Counted from the stretch's first letter, positions 7,623-25,773 are shown. The stretch is DNA of 28,561 nt from Okeania sp. (GCF_035285525.1 NZ_JAYKGW010000033.1:1-28561), one strand, 5' to 3'. Notes: a model not told the origin generated them from the letters alone. Made by a program: numbers and translations.

Positions 7623-8228
7623 ATGAGCAAAATTTCTATAGGAAAGGCTGCCGAACTACTAGGAGTAGCAGAAAGTACCCTGAGAAGATGGGAACGAGAA
7701 GGCAAAATCCATTCAGAAAGAACCAAAAATGGACATCGCCGATATGATGTTGCCACCCTTCTGGGACTAAAAGCTGGAGAACGTAAAACCATTGGTTATG
7801 CCTGCGTTTCTAATTCTGAGCAAACAGCCAATTTAGACAAACAAATTATGGTATTAGAAGCCTACTGTAATAATCAAGGATGGCTAGTAGAAATTATCCG
7901 AGACTTAGGTTCAGGAATAAATTATCGAAAAAGAGGACTTGTCAGATTAATCAAAATGATCTGCTCAGAAAAAGTAGAGCGTTTAGTATTAACAAATAAA
8001 GACCGTTTACTAAGATTTGGTGCGGAACTAATATTTACCATTTGTGAGATTTTTGGCACAGAAATTGTGATAATTAATCACTGTTCTGAATCCACAGAAG
8101 AAGAAGATTTAGACAGAGATATCTTAGAAATTATCAAAATTTTTACAGCTAGACTATATGGTAGTCGTAGCCATAAAAATCAAAAAATAGTAGAAAAATT
8201 GCAAGAGGCAGTTAATCAAATAAATTGA
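7623..8228 (+). CDS. tnpA: IS607-family serine recombinase/transposase (MerR-like HTH plus resolvase catalytic domain), solo with no tnpB
   Basis: The N-terminal HTH reads IGKAAELLGVAESTLRRWEREGKI..RTKNGHRRY. The resolvase core is GYACVSNSEQ (catalytic Ser63) and KDRLLRFG. The 529 nt downstream contain no ORF. Confidence 0.8.
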   Translation: MSKISIGKAAELLGVAESTLRRWEREGKIHSERTKNGHRRYDVATLLGLKAGERKTIGYACVSNSEQTANLDKQIMVLEAYCNNQGWLVEIIRDLGSGINYRKRGLVRLIKMICSEKVERLVLTNKDRLLRFGAELIFTICEIFGTEIVIINHCSESTEEEDLDRDILEIIKIFTARLYGSRSHKNQKIVEKLQEAVNQIN

Positions 8229-15971: not shown

Positions 15972-16291
15972 CGGGACTGGCGCGATTCGAACGCGCGACC
16001 TAGCGCTTCAGATTTGTGTGAGTTTCCCCACTCTCCGGACTATCCCTTCACCATAGCTGTAATAGCTTTAGGTGGTGGCCTAACGCTTAGGGAGAATTGT
16101 AGTTACTCCTTAACACTCTAGTCTCTGCACCTTCTTTACCAAAAATTTAGGTAAAGCTTGGCTCAAGATTACCTTATCTGTATAAAAGACTTAGGCTTCC
16201 TTGAGTTTGACCACATTCACTCATGGAGTTTCCTCTCATAGTGCCCGATACTTCAGGAGGCGCTTGCTCTATCCATCTGAGCCACAGCCCC
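15972..16291 (-). tRNA. tRNA-Arg(CCU), interrupted in the anticodon loop by a group I intron
   Basis: The minus-strand exons are 16291-16255 (GGGGCTGTGGCTCAGATGGATAGAGCAAGCGCCTCCT) and 16008-15972 (AAGCGCTAGGTCGCGCGTTCGAATCGCGCCAGTCCCG). Joined, they give a 74-nt cloverleaf. The acceptor stem is GGGGCTG/CAGTCCC and the D arm is GCTC/GAGC with A20. The anticodon stem is AGCGC/GCGCT with loop CUCCUAA. The T arm is GCGCG-TTCGAAT-CGCGC. CCA is not encoded. Confidence 0.9.
16009..16254 (-). ncRNA. Group I intron (IC3-like, 246 nt) inserted after U36 of tRNA-Arg(CCU)
   Basis: The intron follows an exon U and ends in G. P1 can form as CCU|GA / UCGGG with a U-G wobble at the splice site. P2 is ATGAGAG-GAAA-CTCCAT. 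Several core strings match the Anabaena tRNA-Leu and Azoarcus tRNA-Ile introns as I remember them. They are GTCAAACTCAAGGAAGCCTAAG, GAGCCAAGC, GAAGGTGCAGAGACTAGAG (plus-strand 16116-16134) and GGGATAGTCC (16037-16046). P7 is GACTA/TAGTC and P9 is GAGT-GGGGAA-ACTC. Confidence 0.85.
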
Positions 16292-19709: not shown

Positions 19710-20309
19710 TTACCAAACTTCTGTTAAATCTAAAGCAAATCCAGGCAATACATTTTCTCCGGATAAACTATCAGGATTTTCATATATTTCTATTTCCTGA
19801 TTTTGCCAATAAGTCTCTACTGTGCGGTTTTTACTATTAATTAACCAACCTAATCTTGCACCATTTTCCTGATACTCTTTCATCTTTTTTTGTAATTCTA
19901 AAATAGTATCATTTTTAGAACGTAATTCTACTACAAAATCAGGGCATAAAAGCGCAAAAGTTTCCTGTTGTTCTCTAGTTAAAGCATCCCATCTTTCCTG
20001 TTTTACCCAGGCAGCATCAGGAGAGCGATTACTACCATTAGGCAGATGAAAACTACTAGAAGAATTAAAACTTTTCCCCAATTTTGTTTGATAGTTCCAT
20101 GACCAAAGTTGCCCTATAATACTTGAGTTGCGATTTCCTGTAATGCTTCCTTTTGGTGCCATAATAATTAATTCTTCTGTAGCTGTTCTTTCTAATTGTA
20201 AATCTCGGTTAACCAGTGCTAACTCAATAAATTGTTCGTGGGTAATTTTCAGTTTAATTTCTTTGGGAATATTAACTGGTATTGTCTTAATTAAATTAGT
20301 TGTTGTCAT
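19710..20309 (-). CDS. Uma2 (DUF820) family putative restriction-endonuclease-like protein
   Basis: EQFIELA...NRDLQLERTATEELIIMAP, SPDAAWV and PDFVVELRS match the PD-(D/E)xK-like Uma2 pattern common in cyanobacteria. The start is set at MTTTN (ATG 20307-20309) because the longer ORF track start (20366) runs into a family D MITE. Confidence 0.8.
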   Translation of the reverse strand: MTTTNLIKTIPVNIPKEIKLKITHEQFIELALVNRDLQLERTATEELIIMAPKGSITGNRNSSIIGQLWSWNYQTKLGKSFNSSSSFHLPNGSNRSPDAAWVKQERWDALTREQQETFALLCPDFVVELRSKNDTILELQKKMKEYQENGARLGWLINSKNRTVETYWQNQEIEIYENPDSLSGENVLPGFALDLTEVW

Positions 20310-20345
20310 AACTTTTTTACCTTTGTTGAAGATAATGATAAAGTA

Positions 20346-20541
20346 TAAGCATTCAGCTATTAGCAATCAGCAGTCAGCTCAAGCACAATAAAAATGAATG
20401 AAGCAAGCACTTTTTTAACTTCTACTTTTCAATCATGTATCTGAGTTGTCAACCCAATATAATGGCCGGAAATTATAGATTTGTTTCATAAGCTGAGAGC
20501 TGACTGCTGAATGCGAGCGCATTTCCCAGGAAATGCTTACG
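20346..20541. mobile_element. MITE-like element, family D
   Basis: The left end is ATAAGCATTCAGCTATTAGCAATCAGCAGTCAGCTCAAGC. The right end is AAGCTGAGAGCTGACTGCTGAATGC[GAGCGCATTTCCCAGGAAAT]GCTTAC, with a 20-nt interruption inside the terminus. Confidence 0.6.
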
Positions 20542-24214: not shown

Positions 24215-24790
24215 TCATTCTGCTAATCCTAATACTAAAACAGGAATATCAATATTTGCTACTCCTCGATGTTCTAAATCCCAAACAAATTGTTCAAAAT
24301 AAGAAACTCCTGTTGACATCATATCTGCAAATTCTTTAATAGGTACTATTTCTATTCCTACATCAATTATATTTTGATTGTGAAAAATAGTCATTTTTGC
24401 ACAGACATTGTAAACCATAAAAGCATATTTACCAAATTGAACTTCTACTCCTACTTTACCTTTAACAAAATCCATTTCTCGATAAGGTCTTGGCTGACGC
24501 TCTGGAGTCATAGGTTGATAATTATCTGTATAATATCTAGTAGGATATTCACAATATATTTTTTCTTTTTTCCAACCCATCAATTCAAACTCTTGTCTAT
24601 AAGCAGTATTAAGGGAACTAGGTTTATATAGCATCCTACCAGCCATTGTTTTTTCTTGACTAATCTTTGTTTTATGTTGTTTTGCATCTATTCTAGAAAT
24701 AACATTTTTAACCTGATTAAATTCATCACTGAAGTTTTGCTCAATAACTTCTAACCCAGAGTTAAAAGAATAAATACCAGCAATAATCAT
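24215..24790 (-). CDS. Type II restriction endonuclease, BglII-like fold
   Basis: EMDFVKGKVGVEVQFGKYAFMVYNV reproduces the BglII catalytic D-x8-E-x-Q block (DIDFGKRDTLVEVQFSNYPFLLNN as I recall it). The C-terminal IPVLVLGL resembles the BglII VPIRLVGL. It starts 5 nt after the methyltransferase stop. Confidence 0.75.
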   Translation of the reverse strand: MIIAGIYSFNSGLEVIEQNFSDEFNQVKNVISRIDAKQHKTKISQEKTMAGRMLYKPSSLNTAYRQEFELMGWKKEKIYCEYPTRYYTDNYQPMTPERQPRPYREMDFVKGKVGVEVQFGKYAFMVYNVCAKMTIFHNQNIIDVGIEIVPIKEFADMMSTGVSYFEQFVWDLEHRGVANIDIPVLVLGLAE

Positions 24791-24795
24791 TAATT

Positions 24796-25773
24796 TTATT
24801 TCTCCTCTTGTTCTTCAAATAAATTCATTTGTTTATGATCCTTCCACTCATCAGGAATTTGACTAACTTTTTCTTTACCGGTAGGAACATAAACAGGTTT
24901 ACCTAAAGGTCTCGTGCGTAAAGTTCCATTGTAATAAGAATTAATTCGATTTCTAGCTATTTCAATATAATCAAGTTCTTTCTCACTTCCCATTGCTTTT
25001 CTATTATTTTTAATAGCTGCAATTAAAGAAGTACCTGTTCCGGCATAAGGATCGAAAACAAAATCATTTTCATTTGTTAAAGCCAAAACACATCTTTCAA
25101 CTAATTCTACTGGATATTGACAAGGATGATTTGTTTTTTCTGGATGATTAGATTTTACATTAGGAATATCCCAGATTCCTGCTTCCCAATCTTTAGCTAA
25201 AATTTCCCAAACATCAGAGGGATTTTTACCTTTTTTATTTCCCGATAATTGACCTTTCTTTGCTCCTTTATAATGTCGCTTACCAGGATATTTTGCCGGA
25301 ACTCTAACCGGGTCTAAATTAAAAATATAATTATCACTTTTACTAAACCAAAGAATTGTTTCATAACGACCAGAAAACCTTTTTTGGGCGTGTAAACCAT
25401 GACCATAATGCCAGATAATTCTATTCCGCAAAAACATTTGTAATTTTTTGAATATTTGGTAATAAAAAATATCTAAAGGAAACACTTCACCTTTTTGAAT
25501 AAAATTACCAACTTGCCAACAAATACTACCATCCTCTCTCAAAATTCGGTACATTTGATTCAGCAGTTTTTCTTGAGTTTCTAGATAGTCTTCTAGGGCA
25601 ATTTTTTGCTCATAATTTTTACCAATATTGTAGGGAGGAGAAGTGATAATTAAAGCTACAGAATTATCAGGTATTGTGTTGATAAAATCTGCTGCCTCTC
25701 CGGGATAAAGTATTAAATTAGCTTCAAAATTAAACTCTTCTGAAATCAACTGTTGAGATGAGAAAAAATTCAT
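24796..25773 (-). CDS. Beta-class DNA methyltransferase, probably N4-cytosine (SPPY), cognate to the downstream endonuclease
   Basis: Motif IV (IITSPPYNIG) near the N-terminus precedes motif I (VFDPYAGTGTSLIAA) near the C-terminus, which is the beta-class order. SPPY rather than DPPY favours N4C. Confidence 0.85.
   Translation of the reverse strand: MNFFSSQQLISEEFNFEANLILYPGEAADFINTIPDNSVALIITSPPYNIGKNYEQKIALEDYLETQEKLLNQMYRILREDGSICWQVGNFIQKGEVFPLDIFYYQIFKKLQMFLRNRIIWHYGHGLHAQKRFSGRYETILWFSKSDNYIFNLDPVRVPAKYPGKRHYKGAKKGQLSGNKKGKNPSDVWEILAKDWEAGIWDIPNVKSNHPEKTNHPCQYPVELVERCVLALTNENDFVFDPYAGTGTSLIAAIKNNRKAMGSEKELDYIEIARNRINSYYNGTLRTRPLGKPVYVPTGKEKVSQIPDEWKDHKQMNLFEEQEEK

Follow-up and report, generated by a model that had tools for sequence, protein, structure and literature searches.

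The window analyzed in this work is the whole of a 28,561 nt stretch of Okeania sp. DNA (GCF_035285525.1, NZ_JAYKGW010000033.1:1-28561), which has a G+C content of about 32% and encodes PlsX- and FabH-like proteins, an acyltransferase, DUF2288 and DUF218 proteins, a glycosyltransferase-like protein, a STAS protein, a Ser/Thr kinase and an aspartate kinase. An ORF at 7623-8228 (+), surrounded by sequence of low coding density, joins a MerR-type HTH to a serine-recombinase (resolvase) N-terminal domain, an architecture typical of IS607-family transposases. A BglII-family restriction endonuclease adjoins an N6/N4 DNA methyltransferase at 24215-25773 (-), apparently constituting a type II restriction-modification pair, and a Uma2-family putative endonuclease is found at 19710-20366.

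The subject of this work is a 74-nt tRNA-Arg(CCU) on the minus strand, which is assembled from positions 16291-16255 and 16008-15972 once the 246 nt between them (16254-16009) are excised. The 5' exon (16291-16255; 37 nt, GGGGCTGTGGCTCAGATGGATAGAGCAAGCGCCTCCT) supplies the 5' strand of the acceptor, the D arm, the 5' strand of the anticodon stem and the loop bases CUCCU; it terminates in ...GCGCCTCCT on the minus strand, and its last base, U36 at 16255, is position -1 with respect to the insert. The 3' exon (16008-15972; 37 nt, AAGCGCTAGGTCGCGCGTTCGAATCGCGCCAGTCCCG) begins with AAGCGC and supplies A37 and A38, the 3' strand of the anticodon stem, the variable loop, the T arm, the 3' strand of the acceptor and the discriminator G73, while the CCA end is not encoded. 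The insert starts with GAAG, ends with TCTG and is a group I intron of the IC3 type in the setting known as "Arg.5Ug". AGG accounts for 20 of the 202 arginine codons in the ORFs of the window, so that a tRNA-Arg(CCU) has codons to read.

The boundaries of the insert were established by independent means. Run with default parameters, ARAGORN called no tRNA at all in the window, just as the initial annotation had warned that standard callers might do; on the sequence with the insert removed it called tRNA-Arg(cct), and its intron mode independently selected the identical 246-nt intron with the junction ctcct|aagcg. Both exon halves and the insert are thus exactly where the initial annotation had placed them, and its further claim of an insert which follows a U, ends in G and forms a P1 helix with a U-G wobble is borne out by U16255, G16009 (the final base of the intron) and the pair U16255·G16246. 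The covariance-model search that it had suggested alongside the tRNA call on excised sequence gave a match of Rfam RF00028 (Intron_gpI) to 16267-16016 (-) which covers the full model (1-253 of 253) with 68.0 bits and E=1.8e-15, against a curated gathering score of 50; Intron_gpI was the sole Rfam family to reach its gathering score in the whole window. The insertion lies between U36 and A37 (36|37), so that the fifth base of the anticodon loop precedes the intron (CCU|A), and any shift of the boundary would cost the 7-nt anticodon loop, the U at -1 or the final G of the intron. The strings which had been quoted as familiar from IC3 introns, GAAGGTGCAGAGACTAGAG at 16134-16116 (-) and GGGATAGTCC at 16046-16037 (-), are both present and match seeds of the Azoarcus-type tRNA-Ile2 and Synechococcus tRNA-Leu introns. 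A combined pattern of anticodon and core has a single match in the window and none in 100 shuffles. These results support an interrupted tRNA-Arg(CCU) with an IC3-type group I intron placed after the third anticodon base. There is no homing endonuclease ORF within the intron, the longest ORF overlapping the locus being of 39 aa, and the element is consequently not autonomously mobile by homing. A distant-mode BLAST search of the locus against plasmid and phage collections returned no match, and a scan for promoters and terminators near the gene gave no signal above chance.

Relatives of the intron were sought in species-representative genomes (one per species, 596 Gb) with the pattern CTCCT-N(100-130)-GGTGYAGAGACTA, which gave at least 120 matches. 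The pattern is short enough for many random matches in a collection of this size, and about 55 of the 120 listed matches were rejected as chance occurrences in coding DNA, examples being those in Rhizobium (L111), Hyphomicrobiales (L005) and Nostoc (L071 and L113). Archaeal group I introns were likewise rejected, the matches in archaeal-labelled MAGs (L049, L058, L072, L089, L090, L099 and L115) being chance matches in coding sequence. Among the matches listed, ARAGORN intron mode identified at least 43 further Arg(CCU) genes which are split at the identical CCU|A site. The resulting 44 split tRNA-Arg(CCT) loci have introns of 201-323 nt and always show U at -1, a terminal G and a GGG guide. 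Hosts among the matches listed are cyanobacteria, Chloroflexi, represented by a Chloroflexia MAG with the intron on two contigs, and many beta- and gamma-proteobacteria. At least 22 cyanobacterial or cyanobacterial-type genomes carry the intron; listed cyanobacterial hosts are Trichodesmium erythraeum IMS101, whose genome is complete, Okeania, Dapis, Waterburya, Hyella, Xenococcus, Gloeocapsa, Prochloraceae, Leptolyngbyaceae and several MAGs. Since the pattern required GAGACTA it is blind to the alphaproteobacterial Arg introns, which have GAGACTG, and for these the seeds of a preprint supplement were used.

Some of the scan matches merit separate mention. At four loci (L048, L077, L094 and L121) the same arrangement is visible and ARAGORN intron mode miscalls it as Leu(aag) or Arg(acg) with the wrong loop position; automated split-tRNA calls therefore need checking against the rule of U at -1 and terminal G. 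At four others (L014, L047, L060 and L063) the taxonomic label and the exons disagree: a "Paceibacteria" MAG has Herbaspirillum-type exons, a "Sphingomonas" record has the Comamonadaceae type, and a "Sphingobacterium" MAG and an "uncultured bacterium" have cyanobacterial-type exons and introns, mismatches which likely reflect mis-binning or contamination. IC3-like introns were also seen with other putative hosts, as judged from ARAGORN calls or from reading the upstream flanks (L004, L007, L073, L023, L079, L088, L050, L031, L036, L084, L117, L035, L057, L076, L024 and L039). These putative hosts are tRNA-Leu(UAA) in Bacteroidota, tRNA-Phe(GAA) in CPR bacteria, tRNA-Asn(GUU) in Planctomycetes and Sedimentisphaerales, and CAU tRNAs in Nitrospira, Omnitrophota and CPR, in addition to introns of Saprospiraceae to which no host was assigned. 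They seem to fall among the settings described as "new" by Williams 2020.

The 44 introns, each with 12 nt of exon on either side, were aligned, and RNAalifold recovered from this alignment the anticodon stem, P1, P2, P3, P4, P5, P6, P8 and P9; the pseudoknotted P7 was added to the model by hand. The resulting model has 60 pairs in 13 helices, and 96.4% of its cells across the 44 sequences are standard pairs, as compared with 31-41% when the partners are slid by one to three columns. Changes on both sides were found in 40 of the 60 pairs, and none of 500 shuffles reached any of the observed pairing measures. No variation occurs in the U·G pair at the splice site, in the two C-G pairs next to it or in any of the six pairs of P7, a helix which covariation therefore neither supports nor contradicts; this invariance is in keeping with the catalytic roles that such pairs have in group I introns. 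All 60 modelled pairs are standard in the copy of the window.

Taken from the 5' side (all coordinates are on the minus strand), the fold begins with P1 (16244..16257), in which exon CCU and intron GA (16257-16253) pair with the UCGGG guide (16248-16244) through C16257-G16244, C16256-G16245, U16255·G16246, G16254-C16247 and A16253-U16248. The 5' splice site falls between 16255 and 16254, at the wobble U16255·G16246. The C-G, C-G and U·G pairs of P1 do not vary in the 44 sequences and its two intron pairs covary (GC/AU/GU). The Rfam alignment offers another P1 register, pairing U(-4) with G, which was rejected; it gives a 4-nt anticodon loop, and the comparative alignment favours U(-1)·G. The P2 hairpin (16222..16240) is capped by a GAAA tetraloop (16232-16229) and has double changes in all seven pairs. 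The 5' strand of P3 (16209..16214) pairs over a long range with 16080-16075 (GGCCAC), forming a pseudoknot with P7, and this helix is 100% paired in the alignment with double changes in four of six pairs. The P4-P5-P6 domain (16129..16204; alignment helices 5-9) comprises P4 (16204-16199 with 16168-16163), P5 (16195-16188 with 16178-16172) and P6 (16162-16152 with 16138-16129).

The 5' strand of P7 (16119..16125) reads G-A-GACUA with a bulged A and pairs with UAGUCC at 16042-16037; by likeness to solved group I introns P7 would be the guanosine-binding helix. An extra hairpin occupies 16085..16116, between P7 and the 3' strand of P3 (16075..16080), in a P7.1-like position; it is referred to below as the J7/3 hairpin. 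P8 (16049..16074) pairs 16074-16064 with 16058-16049 and shows double changes in six of seven pairs; J8/7 and the 3' strand of P7 follow at 16037..16048, with the GAAGGGAUAGUCC core in columns which are nearly invariant. The P9 hairpin (16031-16018) again has a GAAA tetraloop and double changes in five of five pairs, and the 3' tail, which lies within 16009..16031, consists of ACAAAUCU and a final omega-G at 16009. Positions 16009 and 16008 flank the 3' splice site, and the last base of the intron is G in all 44 sequences. Across the intron, the anticodon stem (16264-16260 with 16006-16002) is 98.6% paired with double changes in four of its five pairs. P10 is weak in the cyanobacterial form, in which the guide can pair with no more than one of the first three bases of the 3' exon, and alignment of the exons therefore probably depends on the anticodon stem. 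A role of this kind in the Anabaena pre-tRNA is reported in the title of Zaug et al. 1993 (listed in PMC3984707).

The J7/3 hairpin varies between lineages. Compared with the shortest cyanobacterial and all proteobacterial forms, the clade of the window has a net insertion of about 35 nt directly after GAGACUAG at 16118-16081 (-). Members of the Trichodesmium/Okeania/Dapis clade have 35-38 nt inserted here, between P7 and P3', and those of Pleurocapsales and Prochloraceae, like L063, have 54-83 nt; the insertion occupies the same alignment position at L019, L109, L091, L025, L033, L075 and L063. It is missing from the shortest cyanobacterial introns (201-212 nt; Gloeocapsa and Leptolyngbyaceae) and from all proteobacterial introns aligned. 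Folding of the individual sequences gave a hairpin in each lineage with the insertion, the stems differing in sequence and remaining complementary. The intron of the window thus departs from the compact arrangement of the Arg.5Ug and Ile2 seeds, in which no peripheral helix stands between P7 and P3. Elsewhere among bacterial tRNA introns, some seeds do have optional helices at this point. On these comparisons the J7/3 hairpin is a peripheral elaboration of a known scaffold and not a feature of the core.

Conservation of the locus was addressed by comparison with related genomes, among which BLAST puts the window with the marine filamentous clade of Trichodesmium, Okeania and Dapis. BLAST showed that the block of tRNA and intron is 90-95% identical to its counterparts in the genomes of Trichodesmium, Okeania and Dapis, the best match being Dapis sp. 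BLCC M229, and that the flanking genes are about 79-91% identical and retain their order in the same genera; the gene order around the locus is also common to a Microcoleaceae MAG. In a comparison with six relatives, exon identity is 100% (94.6% in L030) and intron identity 87-95%, whereas the 150 nt on either side show 38-60% identity and are essentially unalignable. This difference demonstrates selection on exons and intron alike, and shows the intron to be conserved as a functional sequence. Among cyanobacteria the anticodon stems change in a compensatory manner (AGCGC/GCGCU, AGUGC/GCACU and ACCGC/GCGGU), and so do the T stems (GCGCG/CGCGC, GCCAG/CUGGC and GCUGG/CCAGC).

Uninterrupted counterparts of the gene were identified by scanning metagenomes with an exact 50-nt ligated-exon sequence. 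Nine contigs (L122-L130) carry an uninterrupted tRNA-Arg(CCU) which matches the predicted ligated exons over this 50-nt core and the adjoining bases, with one D-loop base differing from the ligated exons of the window in L126 and L130. Intron-plus and intron-minus genes thus coexist among cyanobacteria, and the match of the uninterrupted genes validates the exact exon junction. The contigs have a G+C content of 43-54% and flanks unrelated to those of the window, and so come from other cyanobacteria and not from the clade of the window. In L128 (1580-1666; 5400-6400) the acyltransferase and DUF2288 known from the window are likewise neighbours of the gene within about 5 kb, in inverted relative orientation, and this contig holds an intron-minus counterpart of the locus. 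No intact tRNA-Arg(CCU) paralog belonging to the clade of the window was present among the metagenome matches to the 50-nt sequence.

Introns of this kind are already known from bacterial tRNA genes. The survey by Williams (bioRxiv 10.1101/2020.01.27.920355) gives four classical tRNA settings, all IC3 (Arg.5Ug, Leu.3Ug, fMet.2Ug and Ile2.5Ug), covers 80,413 genomes and presents cyanobacteria as the richest phylum, with 0.69 split tRNA genes per genome. The tRNA-Arg(CCU) intron family was first described in Agrobacterium (PMC7717549), and the CCU|A site which the initial annotation had ascribed to that genus is indeed the classical Arg.5Ug site. Members of this class (Agrobacterium tumefaciens, later also other alphaproteobacteria such as Bartonella, with BbgpI; seeds Rur1 and Bbo3) share with the intron of the window the tRNA, the anticodon and the CCU|A site, as well as U at -1, the terminal G, the GGG guide, the IC3 core and the lack of an ORF. 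The alphaproteobacterial seeds can be aligned with it throughout the core at 58-60% identity, but the host phylum differs and their P7 is GAGACUG/CAGUCC, in contrast to GAGACUA/UAGUCC in the window; furthermore, proteobacterial Arg forms have an extra helix of 25-35 nt before P9 and no hairpin between P7 and P3', while in the intron of the window the converse is true.

The Azoarcus-type tRNA-Ile2(CAU) intron (seed Aol6.Ile2.5Ug, the crystallised model IC3 ribozyme) has the same loop position, near-identical J6/7-P7 and J8/7-P7' strings, the short 3' end CCAG-GAGUGG-GAAA-hairpin-ACAAA-G and GAAA loops on P2 and P9. It differs in its betaproteobacterial host, in having CAU/GUG where the window has CCU/GGG, and in being shorter by about 40 nt, a difference due mainly to the missing hairpin between P7 and P3'. 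The cyanobacterial introns of tRNA-Leu(UAA) (Leu.3Ug; Anabaena and Synechococcus) and tRNA-fMet (fMet.2Ug) are alike in their hosts, their IC3 core, their location in the anticodon loop and in being missed by callers; unlike the intron of the window, they interrupt another tRNA and sit at loop position 3 or 2 instead of 5. An ancient origin and vertical inheritance are ascribed to the Leu intron (PMC3610870), and some fMet introns contain an endonuclease ORF (PMC5733544), in contrast to the one studied here. The papers on cyanobacterial tRNA introns that were searched, PMC5733544 and PMC3610870 among them, name just Leu(UAA) and fMet, and the Trichodesmium primary-transcriptome paper deals with group II introns only. 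Introns of 22-49 nt which a 2017 paper assigns to group I, in tRNA-Arg(ACG), Gly and Lys of cyanobacteria, were discounted as prior art, being far too short for that group and, in the arginine case, concerning another isoacceptor. We found no published description of a cyanobacterial Arg(CCU) intron lineage in the literature searched; automated surveys have very probably already counted its members. The intron class is therefore known, it is the cyanobacterial sub-lineage that is without a description in that literature, and its existence is unsurprising to a specialist.

The descent of the intron was examined with neighbour-joining trees (189-190 well-aligned intron columns, 200 bootstraps, with seeds from the supplement of the Williams preprint), which are crude. 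Over 190 columns the intron of the window is 64% identical to the Azoarcus-type Ile2 intron, 62% to that of Synechococcus Leu (Sel1), 58-60% to the alphaproteobacterial Arg seeds and 55% to the fMet seed (Tpc1). The cyanobacterial Arg introns were monophyletic in 87.5% and 92% of the bootstraps, and their sub-clades correspond to host groups, namely the Trichodesmium/Okeania clade, Pleurocapsales and Leptolyngbyaceae. Closest to this branch, at no more than 62% support, are the Chloroflexia Arg introns together with the Azoarcus-type Ile2 intron, and the alphaproteobacterial Arg seeds fall elsewhere. This topology speaks against a recent gain from a donor of Agrobacterium type; it favours a long presence in cyanobacteria, with losses or sporadic spread inside the phylum. 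Inheritance within cyanobacteria seems to have been mainly vertical, many lineages being without the intron, and the trees hint that the Azoarcus intron may belong to the same sub-lineage, with which it has the short 3' end in common. The initial annotation had called for such a phylogeny and had presented the intron as bearing on lateral transfer versus ancient inheritance. On this question, monophyly, host tracking and synteny all oppose recent gain from an Agrobacterium-type source; the significance attached to it was overstated, given the presence of the intron in at least 22 genomes and the classical status of its class.

We consider it very probable that the locus is a functional minus-strand tRNA-Arg(CCU) gene, interrupted by a compact, ORF-less IC3 group I intron which is self-spliced and has been inherited mainly vertically in cyanobacteria. 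Conservation is what points to catalysis, and we infer the chemistry, splicing in vivo, any need for a protein helper and the tetraloop(-receptor) contacts by analogy with introns already studied. Transcription would yield a precursor of about 320 nt, in which the two exons would pair into the anticodon stem and so keep the splice sites together. Pairing of exon CCU with the GGG guide would form P1 and present the 5' splice site with a U·G wobble at the site of cleavage, while the intron would fold into its P3-P9 and P4-P6 domains with the additional J7/3 hairpin at its periphery; by analogy with the Azoarcus intron, GAAA tetraloops on P2 and P9 would probably brace this fold. A free guanosine bound in P7 would then attack after U16255 (U36) and be replaced in P7 by the terminal G16009, whereupon the 3'-OH of U36 would attack after G16009, ligating the exons into the loop CUCCUAA and releasing the intron. 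The tRNA, able to read AGG codons, would then be completed by RNase P, by trimming at its 3' end and by addition of CCA. The gene may be non-essential, since tRNA-Arg(UCU) might likewise read AGG.

Other accounts of the locus can be given. One is that the gene is a dead tRNA pseudogene with a decayed intron that no longer splices, AGG being read by another tRNA. The CCU isoacceptor can be dispensed with in the presence of a UCU isoacceptor, and ARAGORN finds no other tRNA in the window, both of which would suit such a pseudogene. We nevertheless regard it as very unlikely indeed, in view of exons that are 100% and an intron that is 87-95% identical across species between unalignable flanks, of 60 out of 60 modelled pairs intact in the window, and of anticodon and T stems that change by compensatory substitution across cyanobacteria, a pattern which decay would not show. 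Hardly conceivable is removal of the insert by protein enzymes in the archaeal or eukaryotic style, or the existence of two separate half-genes, with no self-splicing in either case. Location in the anticodon loop is common to all types of tRNA intron, but the site used here is 36|37 and the canonical one 37|38, the group I covariance model is matched over its full length with an invariant catalytic core, and the halves are contiguous on one strand, 246 nt apart. Moreover, the splicing endonuclease is not known from bacteria.

The last alternative leaves splicing as proposed above and concerns the origin of the intron, which would have been acquired recently and laterally from a proteobacterium in the form of an Agrobacterium-type tRNA-Arg intron. 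The identical insertion site is indeed used in alpha-, beta- and gamma-proteobacteria, other cyanobacteria have intron-less genes with identical exons, and the title of Paquin et al. 1999 (cited in PMC7717549) describes the family as sporadic and horizontally transmitted in alphaproteobacteria. Set against this, the cyanobacterial Arg introns form one clade (neighbour-joining bootstrap 87.5-92%) with sub-clades that match host groups, and the locus is syntenic across Trichodesmium, Okeania, Dapis and the Microcoleaceae MAG. Identity to proteobacterial Arg introns is 55-65%, the 3' architecture of the cyanobacterial form differs, and the intron contains no homing endonuclease gene. We therefore judge such an acquisition very unlikely, and prefer mainly vertical inheritance of a functional, self-splicing intron.

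It is also conceivable, though we hold it to be somewhat less than evenly probable, that cyanobacteria possess in Arg(CCU) a third old and mainly vertical tRNA intron lineage beside those of Leu(UAA) and fMet, distinct from the alphaproteobacterial Arg introns, marked by a lineage-specific hairpin between P7 and P3', and maybe nearer than any other natural intron to the Azoarcus tRNA-Ile ribozyme. If true, a transfer of the Azoarcus intron, or of its ancestor, from one tRNA host and one phylum to another would be implied. A practical consequence concerns annotation: because callers miss the gene, Trichodesmium, Okeania, Dapis and many other cyanobacteria appear to be without a tRNA-Arg(CCU) unless group I introns are sought. 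For the family itself, a monophyletic cyanobacterial branch whose sub-clades track their hosts is added to the classical Arg(CCU) introns, and the genes with and without the intron, which have identical exons at a related locus, provide material for the debate on vertical inheritance with loss versus lateral spread. The same introns provide a natural series of Azoarcus-type IC3 scaffolds, some bearing the extra J7/3 hairpin and others lacking it, and leave the accepted mechanism of these introns unchanged. The value of the finding is thus practical for genome annotation and modest for the understanding of intron evolution.
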